A DNA stretch of 10,850 nt from Candidatus Hermodarchaeum yapensis. Lineage in GTDB: Archaea; Asgardarchaeota; Hermodarchaeia; Hermodarchaeales; Hermodarchaeaceae. Below are positions 1 to 10,850 of the stretch, piece after piece. The number at the start of each line of letters is the position of its first letter. The stretch's first letter is position 1. The notes beneath the pieces are model-generated. The model saw nothing but the letters and a program-made list of their open reading frames with translations. It had not been told where the DNA came from and ran no database searches. The stretch spans positions 1 to 10,850 of the forward strand of contig JAEOSK010000056.1 in NCBI GenBank assembly GCA_016840405.1, written 5' to 3'. Made by a program: the position numbers and the translations under genes.

Positions 1-1061
1 GTTTGCGCCTCGTCAATTCTTATCACGCTCTTACCCACTTTCTTGGCTTTGTAGGTCAAGAATTGGACGAACCGCCCCAAGAAGCCCGTGTTCTGAAGCG
101 AATGATACAACGTTCGAGCCGCTGCATCCTGCTGCCGACGCCCCGACGCCCGTTGTTTTCGCGCCATGACCTTCACCGCAAGATCACCAACAATGAACGT
201 GTTAGCCCGGGTATTTGTCACCACGACCTTGGACATCTTGTGCTGGAAATCGCGTAGTTGGTTGGTCAGCTTGCGGCGCATCTTCAGCCACTTCTGCTGA
301 TAGAAGTACCACTTTTTACTGTGCTTCCGACAATGATCACGTCGGGATTGCACCTCCCGCAGTTTGTTCTTCCAATACAGGTCCGCCCGACGATTGCGAA
401 TTTGAACAAATTTCCCTTGCTGGTTAACCGCCGTGGCCAAATTAATCACTCCCACGTCAATGGCCTGATACCGGCTATTGTCCACATACGGGGGAACCGC
501 CACCTCACAGGTGATGGCGACGAACCATCGATGTCGGCGATCTTGAAAGAGTTCCACCTGCTTGACCCTACCCTTCAGAGGTGGTAACCACGGTAACGCA
601 AACTCCAACTCAACACCCGAGGGATGACGGTGGGCGAAGCGAATCCGCTGGTGGTTAATGTCTAGGAAGAATCCGGATTGATTATAGCACAGGGTGGTAA
701 AATAGTGCTTGCCCTTGAAGCGGGGAGGTCGGGCCTGGAGGTCGCCGCGGCGCCAGAGGGCGTAGAAAGACTTGTAATCAGCATCGAGGCGTCGCAACAC
801 CATTTGCAGGACCTTCGAATAGACCCAGGCATACTCAGGATGCTGGGTCTTGAGGGCGGGGAGGGTGTTTTGTTGTTGGATGTAGGTAATGTAGGAGTGC
901 TCTGTCTTCGGTTTCGTGCGATTGGTTGTCCACTGGTGGCGGCGTTCAGCGAGGGCGAAGTTGTAGAGAAGGCGACATTTTTCGGAGAGGGTCCACAGGA
1001 CTTGGGCTTGAATCGCTGTGGGGCTTATGCGGATTTTGTGTGTCAGCAGCATCTGGGTCAT
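1..1061 (-). CDS. tnpB: TnpB RNA-guided endonuclease (IS200/IS605, IS1341-like) with rearranged RuvC-II; 3' end lies outside the window
   Basis: Manual translation from ATG 1061 is open for 353 codons to the edge: MTQMLLTHKIRISPT...CRLLYNFALAERR...YSKVLQMVLRRLDADYKSF...PPRFKGK...RWFVAITCEV...YQAIDVGVINLAT (RuvC-I D at 456-458)...DFQHKMSK...TFIVGDLAVKVM...FLGRFVQFLTYKAKKVGKSVIRIDEAQT. Absent from the ORF track because there is no stop in the window. Confidence 0.95.
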   Translation of the reverse strand, partial: MTQMLLTHKIRISPTAIQAQVLWTLSEKCRLLYNFALAERRHQWTTNRTKPKTEHSYITYIQQQNTLPALKTQHPEYAWVYSKVLQMVLRRLDADYKSFYALWRRGDLQARPPRFKGKHYFTTLCYNQSGFFLDINHQRIRFAHRHPSGVELEFALPWLPPLKGRVKQVELFQDRRHRWFVAITCEVAVPPYVDNSRYQAIDVGVINLATAVNQQGKFVQIRNRRADLYWKNKLREVQSRRDHCRKHSKKWYFYQQKWLKMRRKLTNQLRDFQHKMSKVVVTNTRANTFIVGDLAVKVMARKQRASGRRQQDAAARTLYHSLQNTGFLGRFVQFLTYKAKKVGKSVIRIDEAQ

Positions 1062-1169
1062 GCTATAGCTAGAAAAGTCATCGGTGTTTTTCAGTCTGGG
1101 GGAGGGGTGCGGATAAGTATCTGGACGATTCATCCCCGCCTTGAAAGACGGGGGCTTATCGACAAATAA
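1..1169 (-). mobile_element. Non-autonomous IS200/IS605-family (IS1341-like) element, left part
   Basis: A subterminal hairpin end is followed after about 70 bp by tnpB, leaving no room for tnpA. The right end is outside the window. Confidence 0.8.
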
Positions 1170-1173
1170 GTTA
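1134..1173 (-). repeat. IS200/IS605 left-end hairpin with guide tetranucleotide TAAG and putative target TAAC
   Basis: The minus strand reads TAAC|TTATTTGTCGA-TAAG-C-CCCCGTCT-TTCA-AGGCGGGG-ATGAAT. This is an imperfect GC-rich stem typical of Y1 transposase recognition ends. Confidence 0.8.
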
Positions 1174-1213
1174 AGTGGAGGCCTTGGACAGTAATCTGCA
1201 GAGTTGAATTTCA

Positions 1214-2896
1214 TTGGGTAAAAATCGGCGTGGCAGGAAAAAATCAGAAAAACCTCGTGACCAGGAAGCTAATATGCTGGATCCAAACATGGAGAAAACC
1301 CCAGAACGCGCTGAGAAGTTCATTACCACCTCCAGTGAACCCGTTGAGCGACTATACACGCCAGAAAAGCTTCAGGATATTGAGTATGACCGCGACCTTG
1401 GATTTCCCGGGCAACCACCCTATACACGTGGAGTGTATCCAACGATGTACCGGAGTCGCCTCTGGACCATGCGAATGTATTCTGGATTCGGAACTGCTGA
1501 ACAAACGAATGAACGGTATCAATATCTCCTGAAACAGGGACAAACCGGTCTGAGCGTTGCTTTTGATTTACCGACCCAGATTGGGTACGATTCGGATCAT
1601 CCGATGGCAGTCGGTGAAGTGGGCAAATGTGGTGTTGCCATTCCCTCTGTAGAAGACATGGCTACACTCTTTCAAGGTATTCCATTAGACAAAGTGAGCA
1701 CCAGCATGACGATTAACGCCCCTGCTGCTGTTCTGCTTGCGATGTACATTACTATTGCAAAACGCCAAGGTGTAGAACCTAAAGTGCTTCGCGGAACCAT
1801 CCAAAACGACATTCTCAAAGAGTATGTGGCTAGGGGAACCTACATCTATCCCCCAGCACCATCCATGCGCCTTATTACCGATACTATCGCCTATTGCCGA
1901 AATGAGTTACCCCGCTGGAATACTATTAGCATCAGCGGCTATCATATACGCGAAGCTGGAAGCACCGCCATCCAAGAGGTAGCATTCACGTTTGCCAATG
2001 GCATCGCTTACGTCCAAGCAGCAATAGATGCAGGATTACACGTAGATGAATTTGCACCCCGCCTCTCATTTTTCTTCGGAGCCCATAATGATTTGTTCGA
2101 AGAAGTTGCAAAATTCCGAGCAGCCCGGCGATTATGGTATCGAATTATGCGGGACCGGTTCAATGCCGAGGCCCCCCGATCCTGGTTATTACGATTTCAC
2201 ACCCAAACAGCAGGCTGTAGCTTGACCGCTCAGCAACCCGCAAATAATATTGTACGCGTTACTATGCAAGCCTTAGCCGCCGTCTTGGGTGGCACCCAAT
2301 CACTCCACACCAATTCCATGGACGAAGCCCTTGCCTTACCCACTGAAAAAGCCGCCACTATTGCATTACGCACTCAACAAATCCTTGCTCATGAAAGTGG
2401 GGTAGCAAACACTATCGATCCCTTCGGGGGGTCTTACTTCCTGGAGAATCTTACAAATGACATCGAAGAAGGGGTCGTAAAATATCTTGATCAAATTGAT
2501 AAGATGGGTGGCGTACTGCGAGCGATTGAAACGGGTTTCATTCAACGCGAAATCCATGATAGCGCATATCGGTACCAACGAGAAATTGAAACCGATGATA
2601 GAGTAGTCGTCGGCGTTAACAGGTTCAGCATTCCTGAAGAAGATCAGACCATCGAATACCTTCGCGTTGACCCAGCAGTGGAGAAAGCCCAATATAAGAA
2701 ACTAGTAAGCTTCCGAAAAAATCGAAATGTCCAGGCTGTCGAAAGAGCCCTTTCCCAATTAAAACAGGTTGCAGAAGGAAATACCAATCTCTTTCCCAGC
2801 ATTCTTGAAGCTGTTGAAGTCCATGCCACACTTGGTGAGATATCTGATGCCCTGCGTTCTGTGTTTGGTGAACACAAACCTGCACAAATTTTCTAA
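1214..2896 (+). CDS. mcmA: Methylmalonyl-CoA mutase, large (substrate-binding) subunit, split type lacking the B12-binding domain
   Basis: Motifs [15 protein letters not shown] (specificity Tyr), [28 protein letters not shown] (specificity Arg), [12 protein letters not shown] and [10 protein letters not shown]. No C-terminal DxHxxG domain. Start may be TTG 1214 (SD-like GAGTTGA) or ATG 1274. Confidence 0.93.
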
Positions 2897-4137
2897 TGCA
2901 CCTTAACTAGTTCTGAACCGGAGGGTATGGTCACGAATATAATTGGAATCAGAACGAGGGCTACTAAGGCAGCAACCCAATAAACTCCAGGTAAAGCCCA
3001 GATCCCGAGCACCACTGCCATTATCAAGGGACCCAGCGTCTGCCCTAATCGTAAGACCAACCCATTCAAAGACATCAATGCGGCACGGTACTCTGTCGGG
3101 GCGAGACGCACGAGTAGGGTCCAAGTTGTGGGCATCGCAAACCCCATTCCAATTCCAAAAAATGCCACAGGGATCAGGAGAAGCAAGAGAGTTGGGGCGA
3201 AAGGAACCAAAAAGAGTCCCAATGCCATAAAGGGGAAAGCAGAAAGTAGGACCGTTTTCATCGAAAACCTTTGGGCTAATTTATTCATAAAAGGAGAAAC
3301 AATAGCTGCTGCTAGAGAAATCAAAGAGATAACAAGACCTGCAATGAATGAGTTGACAAAAAAGAATGTGATAATGAGAAACGGAAGATAGGTGATAATT
3401 GCACCATAAAGCATGATGAAAACTGAGGTGCTGACTAAGAATAGTCCGGCTACTTGTCTATTTCTGAGAACTATACCAACTTGGGTGAAGTATTGTCGTA
3501 TTGAGAGCGTATCTTCTGGTTTTGGAACCTCCAGTTTAAAGAGTGCAGCTAAACCAATAGGTATTGCAAGGAGGGGGAGATAGAATGGGAAAAACCATCC
3601 AAAAAGCGTAAGAAATCCTCCCAGAGTAGGATAGATGGCAGTACCAGTACTTTGCATACTGACATTGTAACCCATCACTTGTGCGCGTTGTTGCCGTCTA
3701 TACAAGTCTCCAATGATAGTGATATTGAGGGATCCTAATGCAGCGGCACCAACTCCTTGAACAAACCGAATGCAAAGTAATATGAGAAAAGGAGAGATTC
3801 CCAACGCCAAGCCGATCGGTTCAGAGAACATACAAGAAAATCCAGCAACGCCAAACAGCAACAAAGAGGGGACTAATACTGGTCTTCGTCCAAATCTGTC
3901 CGCAGCGATACCCAAGAAGGGGGTCAGAATTATTCCTGGGATAGTGAAGATGATTACAACGAGACTGATCATTCCAGGCGGGATACCCAGTTCAAGACTC
4001 ATCCTGGGAAATGCTGGAGTAATGCTAGCTACACCCATAACCGCAATGAGAGTGGTGCCAAAAATAATTAGCAAATTGGCAGAAATTGGAAGGCGCTCCT
4101 CGTTTTTGCCTTCAGAGGACATCTCGTTTGGTTTCAT
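2893..4137 (-). CDS. MFS transporter, substrate unknown
   Basis: 414 aa with about 12 hydrophobic segments and MFS motif [11 protein letters not shown]. Its stop codon overlaps the mutase stop (2893-2896). Confidence 0.92.
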
Positions 4138-4219
4138 CTTAGCCGCTCCAACACCTAACCCTGAATAAAAACGTTTGTGGATTACAAGGTTAAAGAAACA
4201 GAAGTCTTTTCTAACCTAG

Positions 4220-4651
4220 ATGAAATTGACCCCATGGAGTTGTTTGAATTTGCGGATTGCACACATTGGTATTGCGGTCAAAAATGCAGAGGCGGCTCTC
4301 AAGTTATATCGCGAAGTCCTTGGACTTGACTCTACCCATACTGAAATTGTGGAAAGCCAGAAAGTTAAAACCGTCCAGATTCCCATCGGCGATTCCAGCA
4401 TTGAACTCCTGGAACCAACGAGTCCTGATGGCGTCGTAGCCCAGTTTATCGAAAAACGTGGGGAGGGGATTCATCATATTGCCATCGAAGTACAGGACAT
4501 CACTGCTGCATTGAACAAAATGAAAGCGGCGGGATATCGACTTATTGATGAGACACCGCGATTGGGAGCAGATAATATGCTTATCGCCTTTGTTCATCCA
4601 CGTAGCACAAATGGTGTCCTTCTCGAATTATGCCAACCCTCCAAGGATTAA
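4220..4651 (+). CDS. mce: Methylmalonyl-CoA epimerase (VOC fold)
   Basis: Motifs HIGIAV, IELLEP, FIEKRGEGIHHIA and FVHP...GVLLEL, plus pathway context. True start may be a few codons downstream. Confidence 0.93.
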   Translation: MKLTPWSCLNLRIAHIGIAVKNAEAALKLYREVLGLDSTHTEIVESQKVKTVQIPIGDSSIELLEPTSPDGVVAQFIEKRGEGIHHIAIEVQDITAALNKMKAAGYRLIDETPRLGADNMLIAFVHPRSTNGVLLELCQPSKD

Positions 4652-4660
4652 CACACCGAA

Positions 4661-5482
4661 GTGCAGGGCATGACAAAACCACCAATCCCCTTTGAGCCCA
4701 GAAACGATCCCTTTCAGCATGCCCTAGCAAATACTTCAAAACTCGTGGCCAAGCGTTTACTGCATTTTCCTGAACTGCCATCCACCAATACATACCTTAA
4801 GGAGAAAGGTACTGTTGGTGAACGCGAAGGATTAGTAGTCCTAGCAGATACACAAATAGCTGGGAAAGGGCGTTTCGAAAGATCCTGGCATTCACCACCA
4901 GGAGGTCTCTACTTCTCAATCTTGCTTCGTCCAATGACCATTTCTGCCGCGGAAGCGCCACTCATCACCCTAACGGCAGGTGTGGCTGTAGCCAAAGTTC
5001 TACAAACCGCCCTTGGAGTTCAAGCCAAGTTGAAATGGCCCAATGACGTACTCATTGAAAACCGTAAAGTGTGTGGCATTTTGGCTGAATCCACTCTGAT
5101 AGGTGCAGACATCGAATACGTCGTGTTAGGAATAGGTGTCAATGCAAATACACCGCTCAATGAAATGCCTTCCGACCTACAAACTTCAGCAACAACTCTC
5201 CAACACATTTTGAATCGTCCCGTTGATTTACCTCGATTGTTTGGATATCTCCTAGGTCAACTTGAGTTCTGGTATATTCGACTGCGTGATCAGGGTTTCG
5301 CCTCGATTAACCGAGAGTACCGACGGCTCTGTACACAACTTGGAAAGTCGGTGACAGTTACCATTGGGAAAGAAAAGCTCACTGGTGTCGCAAAGGATAT
5401 TGGAGCTGATGGAAGCCTAGTTCTCCACACCGATTCGGGACGAAAACACATCCGAAGCGCTGACATTCTTTCTTCAATGTAG
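4661..5482 (+). CDS. birA: Biotin-protein ligase, class I (no obvious HTH domain)
   Basis: Motifs STN, Q.AGKGR..R.W.SP.GGLYFS, KWPND, KVCGIL and GIGVN. ATG 4670 is an alternative start. Confidence 0.93.
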   Translation: MQGMTKPPIPFEPRNDPFQHALANTSKLVAKRLLHFPELPSTNTYLKEKGTVGEREGLVVLADTQIAGKGRFERSWHSPPGGLYFSILLRPMTISAAEAPLITLTAGVAVAKVLQTALGVQAKLKWPNDVLIENRKVCGILAESTLIGADIEYVVLGIGVNANTPLNEMPSDLQTSATTLQHILNRPVDLPRLFGYLLGQLEFWYIRLRDQGFASINREYRRLCTQLGKSVTVTIGKEKLTGVAKDIGADGSLVLHTDSGRKHIRSADILSSM

Positions 5483-5550
5483 GAAGCAAGTTTGAATGAC
5501 GTTCACAATTCTTTTAGGAGTGAAATTCTCAGTGAACGAGGAGAACCATT

Positions 5551-5937
5551 ATGATACCAACAGCATTCCATCTATTTTCTGTGATATTGGCTCTTCAATT
5601 TGATCCATTCTTTGACTGGATCTTTGGATTTCTTGGAATCTTTTGGATAATCTTCATTGTTTTCTTTGCGTTTTTCTTCATAATGATAATTGTAGTAGGC
5701 TATAGGGCGTGTAAAGCATCACAAACCACTCGGAGAATGTTTGATGCCTCAAAAGTACCGGTAGCGCGAACAACCACTCGACACCTTATGCGAGAAACCT
5801 TGCCCACTGAATGCCCTGAATGCGATGCACCCTTGAAATACAATGAGGTCAAGTGGGTGGGACCTCGACGAGCCGAATGTCCATACTGTGGAAATGTGGT
5901 TGAACTGCAAGAGGAAGATGTCTTCGAAAATTGCTAA
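5551..5937 (+). CDS. Hypothetical membrane-anchored zinc-ribbon protein
   Basis: Long Phe/Ile-rich hydrophobic N-terminus, C-terminal CPEC...CPYC, and GAGGAG upstream of the ATG. Confidence 0.8.
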   Translation: MIPTAFHLFSVILALQFDPFFDWIFGFLGIFWIIFIVFFAFFFIMIIVVGYRACKASQTTRRMFDASKVPVARTTTRHLMRETLPTECPECDAPLKYNEVKWVGPRRAECPYCGNVVELQEEDVFENC

Positions 5938-5985
5938 AAAAGAGAGAAATCTGGTGACTAGCGAAAACTAACCAGTCACCGAGAT
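5936..5985 (-). terminator. Hairpin plus pyrimidine tract downstream of desulfoferrodoxin
   Basis: The minus strand reads ATCT-C-GGTGACTGG-(10 nt)-CTAGTCACC-AGAT followed by TTCTCTCTTTTT, between convergent genes. Confidence 0.55.
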
Positions 5986-6013
5986 CACCTGGAATGTTCC
6001 CAGCTTCAACAGT

Positions 6014-6391
6014 TTAGCTAGTCTTCCAGAGTAAGTGAATGTTGCAGTATTCACGGGCCAAGTCGGGTTTCCCTTTCATAGGAAAGTCCGCCTCAGGTTT
6101 CATGCCAGGTTCAAGGAATTTACGCATAACCCAGCCATCTTTGATTACTTGAATCCATTCTATCCAATGTTCATCGACCATTGGATGAGGAGTCGAACCA
6201 ACAACAGTGTGGATTCCCTCCTTGGTTTCTTCAACGACAGGCACATGTTTTTCGGTCGTGAAATCAGCGGTTTGTTCTTCCATGAGTTTCATGGCTTGAC
6301 CGCAGCAGACTAGCGTTCCTGCGCCAGTATGAACTACTTCCACGATGTTTCCGCAAACCTCGCATTTATAGATTTGGAGAAGTTCAGTCAT
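6014..6391 (-). CDS. dfx: Desulfoferrodoxin (2Fe superoxide reductase)
   Basis: Centre I: YKCEVCGN...CCG. Centre II: EKHVP, HPM...H, CNIH. GGTGA SD upstream. Confidence 0.96.
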   Translation of the reverse strand: MTELLQIYKCEVCGNIVEVVHTGAGTLVCCGQAMKLMEEQTADFTTEKHVPVVEETKEGIHTVVGSTPHPMVDEHWIEWIQVIKDGWVMRKFLEPGMKPEADFPMKGKPDLAREYCNIHLLWKTS

Positions 6392-6435
6392 TTTATAATC
6401 ACCAATATCATTCTAACCTGAAAGTATAAGGAGGT

Positions 6436-6711
6436 CTACCCTGGCTTTTCCTTCGCCTCTTGTTCTTTTTTCTTTTTAACCATCTCTTGAACGTCGTTAT
6501 AGATCTCTTCGCCCACGCATTCTTTGGCGTACTCACAATACTCTACGCAGGACATCGTATCGTTATAGACTGTAAAGCCGCACTTGTCACAATCCATCTT
6601 CACGTCACTGGTGAACATTTCAATTTCTTCAGAACACCGCGGACAGGTCTTGAAGATGATGCTAGGTCGTTTTAGAGGCACAGCTCCAGGGCAGTCATCG
6701 ATAATCTTCAT
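6436..6711 (-). CDS. Small 8-cysteine putative metal-binding protein, function unknown
   Basis: C7, C23xxC26, C41xxC44 and C55xxxC59-x5-C65, followed by a charged C-terminal helix. Co-oriented with dfx. Confidence 0.85.
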   Translation of the reverse strand: MKIIDDCPGAVPLKRPSIIFKTCPRCSEEIEMFTSDVKMDCDKCGFTVYNDTMSCVEYCEYAKECVGEEIYNDVQEMVKKKKEQEAKEKPG

Positions 6712-6716
6712 GGCTA

Positions 6717-7982
6717 TCAGCCATGAGTTAACAATGTTGAGCTTAAAATCAGTTCGGTTTTCCGAATCTTATGAGATATCATTAGTTCTCTGTTCGGTTC
6801 CTGCATCATCGACGGGCACTGCCCTAGAGGGCTGTCACCTCCCGCCTCATAACAAGCGTTTTGAGTCTCCGTGAAACCCACGGCGACAAATAGCAAATTA
6901 ATACTAGCGTTTAAATCTCGATCTATCCTCAGGCCACACACTTTACAATGATAGTTATGTTTAGCTGATAGTTCCGTCTTAATGAACCCACATTGGGAAC
7001 AGCGTCTTGAGGACGGAAAAAACTGAGGAGCCACAACCAATCTCGATCCATACCACTGAGTCTTGTATTCAAGTTGACGACGAAATTCAGCGAAACTTAC
7101 ATCAGATACTGCTTTAGCTAGTGAGTGATTTTTTCGCATTCCATTTACATGAAGTGATTCGATTACAATAACTGACTTGGTTTTCGCCAGTTTTGATGTC
7201 ACCCTATGAAGAGCGTTCTTACGAATATTTGCAATTCGAGCATGAAGTCTTTGAAACCTAAGCCTTGCTTTTGCCCGATTTTGGCTGTTTTTACATTTTC
7301 GAGGTAGAGTTCGTTGAATACGTCTCAACTTCCGTTCATAGCGAGCCAATGCACGAGGATTATCGTATGTAGTGCCGTTAGACAATGTCGCTAACCATTT
7401 AATCCCCACATCCACGCCAACCATAGGACCTGTGTTTTTGATTGGATTGATTTCCTCTTGCACCTGAAGCGATACGAACCACCGACCCGCCTTCTCTGAA
7501 ATAGTCACAGAGAGAATATGAACATGATCAGATTCGGGAGGTAAGTAATTGCGTTCTTTTAGTCGCAAACGACCCAACCTTGGTAACTGTATGGAATCTT
7601 CGAAAACTCTAATCACTCCAGTTAATCTGAAAGATCCAATTCCCTTTTTCCGTGACTTTAAACACGGAAACCCTGGTGATTCTCCATTTTTTACTCGTCG
7701 AAAGAAATTTTTAAAGGCAATATCAAGATTGCGTAGAGCCTCTTGAGGGGCACATTTGGATACACTATACATCCATTGGAACTCGTTTTGTTTTAACTTT
7801 ACAAGTTCCCGATGTAAATCAATTGCACTTGGCGACTTGCCTGTTTTAGAATATTCTTCGATTTTTCGCTTAAGTCCCCAGTTAAAAGCAAAACGGGAAC
7901 AGCCTGCATATTTGTAACAGAGTGAACGTTGTTGGTTATTCAGTTTCAACTCTGTTTTATAGCCACGGTGGACTATAACCAT
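6717..7982 (-). CDS. tnpB: TnpB RNA-guided endonuclease, IS607-like clade, without tnpA
   Basis: N-terminal YKTELKLNN...AGCSRFAFNWGL, RuvC-I VGVDVG, RuvC-II IVIESL, zinc finger CSQC...CKVC and RuvC-III DRDLNASINL. Confidence 0.95.
   Translation of the reverse strand: MVIVHRGYKTELKLNNQQRSLCYKYAGCSRFAFNWGLKRKIEEYSKTGKSPSAIDLHRELVKLKQNEFQWMYSVSKCAPQEALRNLDIAFKNFFRRVKNGESPGFPCLKSRKKGIGSFRLTGVIRVFEDSIQLPRLGRLRLKERNYLPPESDHVHILSVTISEKAGRWFVSLQVQEEINPIKNTGPMVGVDVGIKWLATLSNGTTYDNPRALARYERKLRRIQRTLPRKCKNSQNRAKARLRFQRLHARIANIRKNALHRVTSKLAKTKSVIVIESLHVNGMRKNHSLAKAVSDVSFAEFRRQLEYKTQWYGSRLVVAPQFFPSSRRCSQCGFIKTELSAKHNYHCKVCGLRIDRDLNASINLLFVAVGFTETQNACYEAGGDSPLGQCPSMMQEPNRELMISHKIRKTELILSSTLLTHG
6735..6890 (-). 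ncRNA. Putative omegaRNA (reRNA) of the second TnpB; boundaries approximate
   Basis: Position overlapping the tnpB 3' end is established for these elements. Stem-loops are present at 6869-6883 (CCGTG/CACGG), 6821-6832 (GCCCT/AGGGC) and 6753-6766 (TTCGG-AAAA-CCGAA). Confidence 0.55.
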
Positions 7983-8053
7983 AAATGAACTTTATAATTG
8001 GCGTCATATAAGCAGAACCCACACCTCATGCAAAGTGAACCAGCTCTCTTTTC

Positions 8054-8329
8054 TTAATCTGAAGATTTTTCCTCTTGCTTAGTTTCAGGTTTTGCTTCTT
8101 CCTCGCCAGGAATCGGTTGCGACGTCACTTTTTCAATGGCTGCAATCAATTCATCTTTTAACTCTAAGGAGATGCGGACACCTTTTTTCGTGGGGCGCCA
8201 ATCCGCTTCACCTGCCTGATAGTAGATACGGATGTCAATTCCATAGAAGCCCCGAAACTCGGATAGCGACACCCAGATTTTCTCTGTTTCACTCCGAGGC
8301 AATGCAATTGGTTCACCAATAATCGTCAT
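8054..8329 (-). CDS. PC4/Sub1 (p15)-family ssDNA-binding protein
   Basis: VSLSEFRG...IDIRIYY...WRPTKKGVRI matches the PC4 fold signature (human VSVRDFKG..IDIREYW...PGRKGISL). Acidic/charged tail and AGGTGA SD. Confidence 0.88.
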   Translation of the reverse strand: MTIIGEPIALPRSETEKIWVSLSEFRGFYGIDIRIYYQAGEADWRPTKKGVRISLELKDELIAAIEKVTSQPIPGEEEAKPETKQEEKSSD

Positions 8330-8385
8330 GATAGAATCACCTGTACCTTAATGACAAAATGCACTCTAAAAAGAATTGCTTTCCA

Positions 8386-8433
8386 GAAAAAAACAAGAAA
8401 AAGGCGGATTCGGCACTTCTTGGTGAACCGCCT
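8386..8433 (-). terminator. Hairpin plus T tracts downstream of rubredoxin
   Basis: The minus strand reads AGGCGG-TTC...GAA-T-CCGCCT followed by TTTTCTTGTTTTTTT. Confidence 0.55.
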
Positions 8434-8457
8434 ACCCCGCCAAGTTTATTCGACAGT

Positions 8458-8622
8458 CTAATCAGCGGGTTCAAACATATCCTTGCCAACACCGCAAACG
8501 GGACAAACCCAGTCTTCTGGGATGTCCTCGAAAGCCGTGCCAGGGGCAATGCCTCCATCGGGATCACCGACGGCAGGATCGTAGATGTAACCGCATGCTG
8601 TACAAACGTACTTCTGTGCCAT
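8458..8622 (-). CDS. rub: Rubredoxin, 54 aa (below the ORF-track cutoff)
   Basis: Manual translation: [62 protein letters not shown] upstream. Confidence 0.97.
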
Positions 8623-8694
8623 GGTAGGTCACCTATTTTTCTGTGGTTTCTTTGGTGGTTATTATTCTTTGGGTGTTATGATTCGGTCGTTTTG

Positions 8695-9279
8695 CTAGTA
8701 GGTTTCACATAAGACTTCAAAGTATGATGTGGAATGGAAGCAGGAGGGGCACTCATCTGGGGGTTCTTCACCTTCATGGACATAACCACATTCCCGGCAG
8801 ACCCAGCTGGTAGGTTTGGATTTCTTGAAGACTGTTTTGGCTTCGACTTCTTTGAGTAGAGCCGTGTATCGTTTGGCATGGTGATCTTCTGCTTTGGCGA
8901 TGGCACGGACTTGTTCAGCAATGGCTTTGAATCCCTCTTTTTCAGCCGTATCAGCAATGTCAGGATACATTTTGGTGTGTTCGTATGTTTCCCCTTCAAT
9001 GGCTGCTTTGAGATTGTCTATGGTTTTACCAACTTTCAAGGGAGCCACTGCGTCGACGCCGATTTCAGGCATGGATTTACCAGTTTGCTCCATGACGGCA
9101 TGAGCGGCGCGCCAGAAGTTTTTCGCGTGGACACGTTCGTTATCGGCGGTTACATTGAAGATTTCGGCGATTTGTTCGAATCCCTCTTTTTTAGCGATTT
9201 TTGCATAGATGTTGTAGCGGTTGCGTGCTTGGCTTTCACCGATGAAAGCTTGCACGAGTCCGATTAGGGTTTTGGACAT
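8695..9279 (-). CDS. rbr: Rubrerythrin
   Basis: Di-iron ligand motifs GESQA, NERVHA, GETYE and AEDHHA, plus a C-terminal rubredoxin-like CREC...CPSC. Confidence 0.96.
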   Translation of the reverse strand: MSKTLIGLVQAFIGESQARNRYNIYAKIAKKEGFEQIAEIFNVTADNERVHAKNFWRAAHAVMEQTGKSMPEIGVDAVAPLKVGKTIDNLKAAIEGETYEHTKMYPDIADTAEKEGFKAIAEQVRAIAKAEDHHAKRYTALLKEVEAKTVFKKSKPTSWVCRECGYVHEGEEPPDECPSCFHSTSYFEVLCETY

Positions 9280-9449
9280 TGTAATCTAACCTCGGTCGGT
9301 GTATCACTTGGGTTCTGGATAAGAATCTTTGCGATTTCTAGCCAAAGCTGTCTTTTGAAGCTAGGAGTTGGGTTTAAGAGGAGAAACTGCCAGAAGGGGC
9401 AACAGCTTTGTAGAATTCAATGCAAAGAATTGGCTGGAGTGTAACTCGG
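9280..9449. promoter_or_regulatory. Divergent promoter region (rbr / carboxyltransferase)
   Basis: TATA-like TTTAAG at 9373-9378 (+) and BRE/TATA-like CGCAAAGATTCTTAT at about 9319-9333 (-). SD-like GGAGTG (9436-9441) and GAGGT are also present. Confidence 0.5.
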
Positions 9450-10850
9450 ATGCCTTCAGAAGTTATGAATAAGAAGCTCAAGGAACTCCGAAAACGCCTA
9501 GAGAAGGCGAAATTGGGTGGCGGAAAAGAGCGGATTGACCGGCAACATAAAGCTGGTAAGATGACGGCTCGAGAACGGATTGAAAAGTTGTTGGACCCGG
9601 GGAGTTTCATGGAGTTTGATGCCTTAGTGGAGCACCGTGTCACCGAGTTTAAGATGGATAAGCAGAAAATCCCTGGAGATGGGGTTGTCACCGGCTACGG
9701 CACAATTGATGGACGTCTAGTCTTTGTGTTCAGTCAGGACTTCACCGTGTTTGGAGGCGCCTTAGGTGAAATGTTCGGAGAAAAGGTCACAAAAATTATG
9801 GATCTAGCCTTAGAAGCTGGAGCCCCTGTGATTGGACTGAATGATTCCGGTGGAGCACGTATCCAAGAGGGAGTGGCGAGTCTTGGAGCCTATGGTGAAA
9901 TCTTCTATCGCAATGTCATCGCTTCCGGTGTGATTCCACAAATTAGTGCAATTATGGGTCCGTGTGCGGGTGGAGCCGTCTATAGCCCTGCTGTAACTGA
10001 TTTTACGTTAATGGTGAAAAATACCAGCCGCATGTTCATTACCGGACCTAATGTCATCAAAGCTGTAACGGGCGAAGTCATTAGTTTTGAAGAATTAGGT
10101 GGGGCGATGACACATAACATCAAAAGTGGTGTAGCCCAATTCGCCGCTGAAAATGAAGAGCATTGTTTACAGCTTATTCGTGAGCTGTTATCGTATATTC
10201 CATCCAACAACATGGAGAATCCGCCAATTGTTGAGCCCATGGATGACCCGATGAGATCAGACCCCGGATTAAATGAGCTCCTACCTGATGATCCGACAAC
10301 ACCGTATGATATGAAACATGCGATTCTGAGTGTCGCAGATAATAATCGTTTCTTGGAGGTGCATGAACATTTTGCACAAAACATGGTTGTAGGGTTCATC
10401 CGGTTAAATGGTCACCCCGTAGGTGTAGTTGCGAATCAGCCCAACTATCTAGCTGGCACTTTGGATATCGACGCCTCTGACAAGTGTGCCCGGTTTGTTC
10501 GCTTTTGTGATGCATTCAACATTCCTATCCTAACCTTCATGGATGTGCCAGGATTTCTCCCTGGTGTCGAACAAGAGCACCGCGGAATTATTCGTCATGG
10601 TGCAAAGATACTTTTTGCATATGCTGAGGCGACTGCGCCAAAAGTAACGGTCATCACACGTAAGGCTATTGGTGGAGCGTATGTGGTGTTAGGTTCCAAA
10701 CATCTTCGGGCGGATGTCGTCTACGCTTGGCCCAGCACGGAAATGGCTGTGATGGGTCCAGAGGGCGCTGCTAACATTATTTTCCGTCGAGAAATTGAGA
10801 AAGCCAAGGACCCTGAAGCAGCCAGAGCGAAGCGCATCGCTGAGTACCGA
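9450..10850 (+). CDS. pccB: Acyl-CoA (propionyl/methylmalonyl-CoA) carboxyltransferase subunit, 3' end outside the window
   Basis: Manual translation: [10 protein letters not shown]...GKMTARERI...PGDGVVTG...QDFTVFGG...[10 protein letters not shown]...[12 protein letters not shown]...VANQP...[12 protein letters not shown]...DVPGFLPG...GIIRHGAK. Open for 467 codons to the edge. Confidence 0.94.

Follow-up and report, generated by a model that had tools for sequence, protein, structure and literature searches.

A probable transposase-less IS200/IS605 element carrying a relocated-glutamate TnpB in a Hermodarchaeota-type Asgard archaeon

TnpB proteins in which the RuvC-II motif's glutamate has been relocated form a large known class. 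In the major clades of this class (RIIr) the RuvC-II Glu is replaced, in the largest of them (RIIr-5) by Gly, and an alternative Glu is predicted to compensate for the loss (Altae-Tran et al., PMC10691335). Such rearranged TnpBs were named TnpB2, and the protein of Thermoplasma volcanium (TvTnpB) was shown to cut DNA (Jiang et al., PMC10530073). The combination of DPG at RuvC-I with the alternative Glu was described as the signature of Fanzors and pro-Fanzors, in cyanobacterial IS607 elements (Yoon et al., PMC10711439). Here, we describe a tnpB gene of the relocated-Glu kind at the edge of an archaeal contig. The analysed stretch (the window) spans bases 1–10,850 of contig C6. The host genome (G000), with a size of 2.7 Mb, consists of 77 contigs and is 86% complete. 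Positions 1–1170 of the window (minus strand) very likely represent the larger part of a transposase-less IS200/IS605 element carrying a relocated-Glu TnpB in a Hermodarchaeota-type Asgard host.

On the minus strand, a frame of 404 residues (P0001) is open from position 1214 to position 3 and runs off the contig end. Homologous proteins begin at M52 of P0001 (ATG at 1059–1061) and carry stops in their frames upstream of this start; therefore, the true start of tnpB is at 1061, as the first-pass annotation, made from the sequence alone, had proposed. The product is 80–82% identical to intact orthologues of 439 aa, one of which (82% identity) bears the NCBI name 'RNA-guided endonuclease InsQ/TnpB family protein'. 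P0001 has Pfam matches to HTH_OrfB_IS605 and OrfB_IS605 and scores 152 bits against the NCBIfam model guided_TnpB (cut-off 100), with only the first 24 residues of the zinc-finger domain seen in this match before the contig edge. Modeling of an 80%-identical orthologue (P0003) using AlphaFold 2 led to a model with a predicted local distance difference test score (pLDDT) of 89 and a predicted template modeling score (pTM) of 0.82. The best fold match of this model was ISDra2 TnpB (8h1j_A; template modeling score (TM) 0.72/0.86). There is little doubt that the gene product, a compact TnpB whose intact orthologues have 439 aa, falls in the RuvC-II-rearranged class.

The six close tnpB relatives in the species-genome collection were all found in metagenome-assembled genomes (MAGs) of Asgard archaea, which their submitters had labeled as Hermod-, Odin- or Promethearchaeota. 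Four of these six MAGs, as well as 'Candidatus Hermodarchaeota archaeon YT1_028', belong to the same GTDB genus as the window genome. Among the Asgard archaea, the host belongs to a Hermodarchaeota-type genus; the first-pass annotation had raised an Asgard-related host as a condition only, and the relatives, all from Asgard MAGs and some from the same genus, confirm it.

The active site was analyzed by direct codon reading and alignment, and both agree with the three motifs read initially, namely a RuvC-I Asp, a Gly at the canonical RuvC-II Glu position and a Glu located 59 residues further on (Gly343 to Glu402 of P0001; Table 1). Residue numbers D202, G292, E351 and D385 below are those of the full-length orthologue P0003. 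In an alignment with an ISDra2-derived TnpB from the PDB, IVGDLAVKxM falls on AVEDLNPKNM, i.e., the Gly lies on the canonical Glu, and IDVGV falls on the RuvC-I Asp. Beyond the visible part, RIDEAQTTKRCCVCG...CDCG...DRDQNAAVN follows in the full-length paralogues of the window genome and in six intact orthologues of other MAGs; therefore, the family has a zinc finger and the RuvC-III Asp. The relocated Glu precedes the first CxxC of the zinc finger by six residues (E-x6-CxxC in all orthologues). In the Asgard family, whose members share 48–100% identity, D202, G292 and E351 are each invariant (22 of 22 members), as is D385 in 21 members, and the RuvC-I Asp is also invariant across a 61-sequence alignment. 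Because these D/G/E/D positions do not vary among the family members, the three-position motif is not a product of chance. In the window copy, the Asp and the alternative Glu can be read directly, and the RuvC-III Asp, present in 21 of 21 relatives, falls in a segment of about 188 nt that is unassembled.

Alignment of the family profile with the mimivirus Fanzor2 (9b0l_P) placed VIRIDE-AQTTKRCCVCG on VVNVNE467-YLTTKTCSNCG, and the DRD Asp of the family (D385) on Asp501 (DRD501) of ApmFanzor2. In ApmFanzor2, the E467A substitution abolished cleavage (PMC10530073), and cryo-EM revealed that Asp324, Glu467 and Asp501 hold Mg (PMC11832414). Judged by this alignment, the relocated Glu is homologous to an experimentally catalytic residue, Glu467 of Fanzor2. 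In the AlphaFold 2 model of P0003, Glu351 is located directly behind the strand 345–350, and the Asp, the Gly and the relocated Glu are found at the ends of three successive strands. This placement in the predicted secondary structure is consistent with the rearranged site described previously. The predicted catalytic triad is composed of the Asp of IDVGV, the relocated Glu of RIDE and the Asp of DRDxN, with Gly at the old Glu position.

Two other explanations of the missing canonical Glu were weighed. TldRs also descend from TnpB and have no canonical RuvC-II Glu, and the product could be a TldR-like domesticated regulator with a dead nuclease; or the Asp after the Gly (IVGDL) could be the working acid instead of the downstream Glu, in agreement with HMMER alignments against natural ISDra2, which are shifted by one and pair E278 with this Asp. 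However, if the alignment is held in register at the flanking Leu and Met, E278 of ISDra2 falls on the Gly. The residue following the Gly varies in the family (D/A/E/K/R), being A, E, K or R in 8 of the 22 intact relatives, while the relocated Glu and the two Asp do not vary; given its variability, this residue cannot be a catalytic acid that has shifted. In addition, TldRs have lost catalytic residues and mobility, whereas the window family keeps the triad via the relocated Glu, zinc finger and RuvC-III are present in the full-length orthologues, and the insertion is polymorphic, the locus being a mobile element present at many sites with variable flanks (guides) and not in a fixed gene neighborhood. 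We consider both explanations, even taken together, barely credible, and the relocated Glu is retained below as the putative catalytic residue.

Comparison with genomes of the same genus made it possible to delimit the element. In G098 and G099, the site is empty and reads ...CCACTTAA/TGAAA(T/G)TGATTCA... (the slash marks the insertion point), upstream of a methylmalonyl-CoA mutase gene, and the filled site in G000 reads ...CCACTTAA/CTTATTTG... with no duplicated bases. The sequences corresponding to window base 1171 and base 81 of contig C26 abut directly in the empty sites. It follows from this match that C6 and C26 are neighbors, that the insertion of the element, 3' of CTTAA, is lineage-specific and that both element ends are intact. 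The remainder of the element consists of the unassembled ~188 nt and of C26:1–80, the right end (RE), which terminates in ...GGGGTAGTTCAC. In C26:1–75, the last 24 tnpB codons are read in frame, and 5 nt separate their TAG stop from the RE end; the unassembled part corresponds to ~62 codons, which include the zinc finger and RuvC-III. In two marine-sediment/seawater runs, Logan contigs, among them one of 206 nt, reach 143 nt past window position 1. Thus, the leftward extension that the first-pass annotation had suggested recovered the zinc finger, RuvC-III and omegaRNA at the level of the family, from orthologues, together with the RE and the last 24 codons on C26, and left the ~188 nt of the window copy itself unassembled.

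The close copies all terminate in TAGTTCAC, and their 5' flank is TTTAA in 8 of 10 cases and otherwise CTTAA (the window copy) or TTTAC. The left end (LE) and the RE are unrelated sequences, so that the ends are asymmetric. An 8-bp hairpin was predicted by DNA folding ~17 nt from the tip of the LE, with a z-score of −1.15 that is not significant against shuffles; the terminal hairpin of the RE (helix 5 of the omegaRNA) has good covariation support. Such an insertion, placed 3' of a short target and lacking a target-site duplication, is in the style of IS200/IS605. In other Asgard genera, family members directly follow a Y1 HUH transposase gene (G307:C7, G308:C91 and G298:C105), and decayed Y1 TnpA copies stand beside family members at G165:C97 and G010:C104. 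Among 14 genomes of the host genus, only one contains a Y1 TnpA. As Y1 is present beside relatives and absent from what is assembled of the window genome, the element can be regarded as a non-autonomous derivative of the IS200/IS605 type.

The last ~165 nt before the RE end form five helices with 27 pairs in 15 relatives. In this alignment, 95.5% of cells are paired, versus 30–38% in slid-partner controls, compensatory changes occur in 18 pairs, versus 3–7 in the controls, and none of 500 shuffles came up to these figures. An upstream GUGAAC is the pairing partner of the terminal GUUCAC. A search of Rfam revealed no family matching this structure. From the covariation, the conserved 3' structure is identified as the expected omegaRNA, overlapping the 3' end of the coding sequence (CDS). 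The corresponding region of the window copy is located outside the window, in the gap and C26:1–80. In the host genus, the tnpB open reading frame (ORF) spans the whole omegaRNA scaffold and its stop is located 5 nt before the RE end (L014:3626–3825 and equivalents; G000 C26:1–80). The conserved C-terminal tail of the protein (...LLQQPPVNGEPLQ...VDSMEAP..MQG) is probably kept because of the RNA; the AlphaFold 2 pLDDT of the orthologue is below 50 for residues 426–439 of this tail. In many distant copies, a single TAG is met in the aligned region, and recoding was considered for it and rejected: the TAG is the natural stop at about residue 430, and the alignment continues beyond it into conserved omegaRNA DNA.

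The locus was then compared with the described systems. Like TnpB2/RIIr proteins, e.g., TvTnpB with its E323 (PMC10530073, PMC10691335), the window TnpB is compact and combines Gly at the canonical Glu position with an alternative Glu that is conserved shortly before the zinc finger, and with a DRDxN RuvC-III; in both cases the genes belong to IS200/IS605-type elements with a 3' omegaRNA, and Y1 TnpA is found in relatives. The window family differs in that it forms a distinct Asgard-rich subfamily (a 33-member clade; support 100/100), in its second zinc knuckle, which is CxC and not CxxC, and in the extent of the ORF over the scaffold in the host genus. ISDra2 TnpB of Deinococcus radiodurans (8h1j, 8bf8, 8exa) has the same size, domain order and DRDxN motif, and its element is likewise inserted 3' of a pentanucleotide without duplication and takes its guide from the right flank. 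In contrast, ISDra2 TnpB has the canonical Glu278 and VSP where the window TnpB has IDE, and its target-adjacent motif (TAM) is TTGAT, compared with the candidate (T/C)TTAA of the window element. Taken together, the window TnpB is a real, mobile and probably functional TnpB of the already described relocated-Glu class (TnpB2/RIIr).

Several observations weigh against a functional gene and element. The window genome contains seven further copies. Four full-length paralogues have 2–4 in-frame stops each (C67:11831–13147, C73:7345–8661, C40:17153–18469 and C39:10443–11756), and three copies, in C24, C74 and C76, are internally deleted; with four of the five full-length copies bearing stops and three copies deleted, the family is decaying in this genome. 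No Y1 TnpA and no serine recombinase were found in the 86%-complete genome, and with neither type of transposase found the element cannot transpose by itself at present. The zinc finger and RuvC-III of the window copy are in the unassembled ~188 nt, where a lesion may be located, and the nuclease activity itself is a prediction from homology to TvTnpB and Fanzor2. The window copy could therefore be a dead or dying relic like its paralogues, broken in the unassembled segment or intact by chance and without function for the element or the host. However, 377 visible codons (353 in the window and 24 on C26) are open without a lesion, both element ends are intact and the insertion is younger than the split from G098 and G099. 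The paralogues carry ~1–3 stops per 353 codons, and at this rate stops would be expected in a copy that is old and neutral. The ratio of nonsynonymous to synonymous substitutions (dN/dS) of the window tnpB (353 codons) against five intact orthologues is 0.07–0.14, i.e., about 0.1. A relic is accordingly a minority possibility, which we regard as unlikely; it is rather likely that the window gene is intact and functional, with the integrity of the ~62 unassembled codons presumed.

Across all pairs, stop-bearing paralogues included, dN/dS is 0.07–0.17, with dS from 0.8 to saturation. Since the ratio is low even for the stop-bearing paralogues, these represent old, separately acquired lineages under purifying selection, and their stops are recent. 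Neutral decay of the paralogues, considered because their nucleotide identity exceeds their protein identity, was rejected on the same values. The four stop-bearing paralogues have no indels, and the inspected stops replace Trp, Gln or Arg/Lys codons and resemble C>T or G>A changes. It looks as if several independent lineages were inactivated recently within one genome, purely by point mutations. A 5'-truncated remnant at G000 C74:9418–9812 is located just upstream of the gene for ribosomal protein uL3, and an intact copy (L009, G098:C15) occupies the same site; the shared site indicates an orthologous insertion, intact in G098 and decayed in the window genome. Just upstream of the LE of the orthologous element in G098, a tRNA match of intron length, 111 nt, was found (L009:2173–2283, minus strand). 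In addition, short Logan contigs from three runs join window positions 1096–1130 of the LE straight to RE (omegaRNA) sequence, a junction that indicates internally deleted mini-copies in the population, similar to the C76 copy. As to the window gene, the initial proposal of an active rearranged nuclease, rather than a dead TldR, looks supported by the homology to Glu467, the zinc finger and DRDxN in orthologues, the dN/dS range, the covarying omegaRNA and the insertion polymorphism.

A mechanism can be proposed on the model of what is established for ISDra2 TnpB, TvTnpB and Fanzor2. Its observed basis comprises the motifs, the homology to Glu467, the family-wide invariance, the purifying selection, the omegaRNA covariation and the precise, duplication-free insertion, for which relatives have an empty site. 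The final ~165 nt of the element encode an omegaRNA scaffold ending in GUUCAC, which overlaps the 3' end of the CDS, and the guide would be formed by the ~16–20 nt of flanking DNA beyond the scaffold, a length that is presumed. The TnpB–omegaRNA complex would recognize the putative TAM (T/C)TTAA together with the guide-matching sequence, that is, the element-free allele, and may cut this allele. Repair off the filled copy would then retain or spread the element.

Table 1. Coordinates of the tnpB gene, its predicted active-site residues and the element in the window
Feature	Position	Strand	Details and basis
RuvC-I Asp, predicted catalytic (D253 of P0001; D202 in orthologue numbering), motif QAIDVGV	456..458	-	gtc read as GAC; aligns with ISDra2 D191
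Gly in place of the canonical RuvC-II Glu (G343 of P0001; G292), motif FIVGDL	186..188	-	acc read as GGT
Alternative Glu, predicted catalytic (E402 of P0001; E351), motif RIDEAQ	9..11	-	ctc read as GAG; aligns with ApmFanzor2 Glu467
tnpB CDS, codons 1–353 of expected 439	1061..3	-	Open throughout, cut by contig end; Pfam/NCBIfam matches
Window part of the ~1.44-kb non-autonomous IS200/IS605-type element, LE at 1170 to contig edge	1..1170	-	Empty-site comparison; paralogue/orthologue alignments
Non-coding LE, 109 nt, upstream of tnpB start	1062..1170	-	DNA-level conservation among copies (LE alignment)
Candidate TAM/insertion target CTTAA, directly 5' of LE	1171..1175	-	Empty/filled site; flank alignment

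The first-pass annotation had treated Gly with a downstream Glu as a Fanzor-related signature and had placed weight on Fanzor origins. The signature holds in part: the Glu aligns with Glu467 of Fanzor2 and the protein is of the rearranged class, but DPG is absent and no special link to Fanzors was found. Similarly to the window TnpB, Fanzor2 of Acanthamoeba polyphaga mimivirus (ApmFz2, 9b0l; PMC11832414) has Gly at the canonical position, an alternative Glu six residues before CxxC, and the TTK-C-x2-CG and DRD-NAA motifs. The window TnpB differs from Fanzor2 and the cyanobacterial IS607 pro-Fanzors (PMC10711439) in the lack of an N-terminal extension or nuclear localization signal and in its prokaryotic host; its RuvC-I motif is DVG and not DPG, and the partner transposase of its family is Y1 (IS605) and not that of IS607. 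Among 22 family members, RuvC-I is D(L/V/I/Q)G in 21 and DPG in one (L041, genome G010). L041 (G010:C104:4901–7385) has DPG together with the alternative Glu, which is the signature combination of Fanzors and pro-Fanzors, and adjoins a decayed Y1 TnpA. Three metagenomic relatives (P0015, P0021 and P0022) also have DPG and the alternative Glu, P0022 being located beside a Y1_Tnp gene. For P0015, which is encoded on a 1.9-kb metagenome contig, no match at E <= 1e-80 was found in 400 Asgard genomes.

A motif-pattern search of viral contigs (IMG/VR) revealed one giant-virus Fanzor2 homologue, P0158, which has DLG at RuvC-I; a search for relatives of P0158 returned only P0158 itself. Its scores were 60–73 bits against canonical-Glu TnpBs and did not exceed 47 bits against the Asgard family. 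The natural protein of solved structure closest to the window family by sequence was ISDra2 TnpB (81 bits over the full length), and in the fold ranking of the P0003 model, in which ISDra2 TnpB was also first, Fanzor2 took rank 14 (TM 0.63/0.60). When the RuvC half only was compared, ApmFanzor2 (53.6 bits) and natural ISDra2 (45.8 bits) gave comparable scores. In a careful maximum-likelihood tree, the Asgard family was placed in the 33-member clade, within a 49-member clade of prokaryotic alternative-Glu proteins (100/96), and Fanzor2 P0158 was found on a long branch outside the latter. The sampling of this tree is thin, with one Fanzor2, no Fanzor1 and no pro-Fanzors, and with representatives picked by their similarity to the query. 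In the approximately unbiased (AU) test, a single alternative-Glu clade including Fanzor2 was not rejected (p 0.67), nor was a grouping of Fanzor2 with the Asgard-rich clade (p 0.255), the constrained tree of the latter being 20.7 log-likelihood units worse. Thus, the comparison with Fanzors in a tree, proposed at the outset, placed the one Fanzor2 outside the prokaryotic alternative-Glu clade, with the alternatives not rejected by AU.

These data bear on the idea that, among prokaryotic proteins, Fanzors have their nearest kin in the Asgard alternative-Glu TnpBs, in which case the gene would bear directly on the origin of eukaryotic RNA-guided nucleases. The Gly, the alternative Glu and the E-x6-CxxC spacing common to Fanzor2, the slightly higher RuvC-half score against ApmFanzor2, both AU results and the one Asgard member with DPG are in its favor. 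Against it stand the DVG of the window protein, the association of the family with Y1/IS605, given that pro-Fanzors are cyanobacterial IS607 TnpBs, the better scores of P0158 against canonical-Glu TnpBs, its long branch outside the 49-member clade with the worse likelihood of the constrained tree, and the position of ISDra2 TnpB, not Fanzor2, as the best fold match. We give this kinship only a slim chance, and an equally slim one to the narrower proposal that the Asgard-rich, Y1-associated clade, in which DPG with the alternative Glu occurs sporadically, is the true sister of Fanzors. If the latter were true, eukaryotic RNA-guided nucleases would trace to the archaeal host lineage and not to cyanobacterial IS607 elements. 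An Asgard origin of Fanzors is unsupported, and the initial emphasis on Fanzor origins was not sustained in view of DVG, the Y1 partner, the IS200/IS605-style insertion, ISDra2 as the nearest relative by both sequence and fold, and the position of Fanzor2 outside the clade.

The rest of the window (1214–10850) contains a methylmalonyl-CoA cluster and oxygen-stress genes, namely genes encoding methylmalonyl-CoA mutase, an MFS transporter, a glyoxalase-fold protein (probable epimerase), biotin ligase, desulfoferrodoxin, rubrerythrin and carboxyltransferase. The element has the mutase gene on one side and, on the other, the 3' end of an upstream gene of the same direction (on C26); it may therefore cut the mutase off from upstream signals. 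A second, intact TnpB of the ordinary kind (421 aa) is encoded at 6717–7982 on the minus strand. Its motifs are GVDVGI, VIVIESLHVNGM with the canonical Glu, PQFFPSS at the IDE position of the first gene and a CxxC...CxxC zinc finger followed by IDRDLN; its identity to the first tnpB product is ~25%. With this canonical Glu in the same window, both active-site types are found side by side.

Descriptions of the class, of its likely activity and of how it relates to Fanzors date from 2023–2024, and the window gene opens no new question in this respect; it is a well-resolved Asgard example of the rearranged-RuvC class. The exact ends, the empty site, the candidate TAM (T/C)TTAA, the guide position and the covarying omegaRNA are enough to assay the 439-aa nuclease. 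The alternative-Glu tnpB family was found in 63 of 400 sampled Asgard genomes, belonging to 19 of the 85 genera of the phylum (E <= 1e-60). The relocated Glu is thus common in Asgard genomes, where it occurs with IS605-type biology, and therefore the motif alone should not be read as a link to Fanzors.

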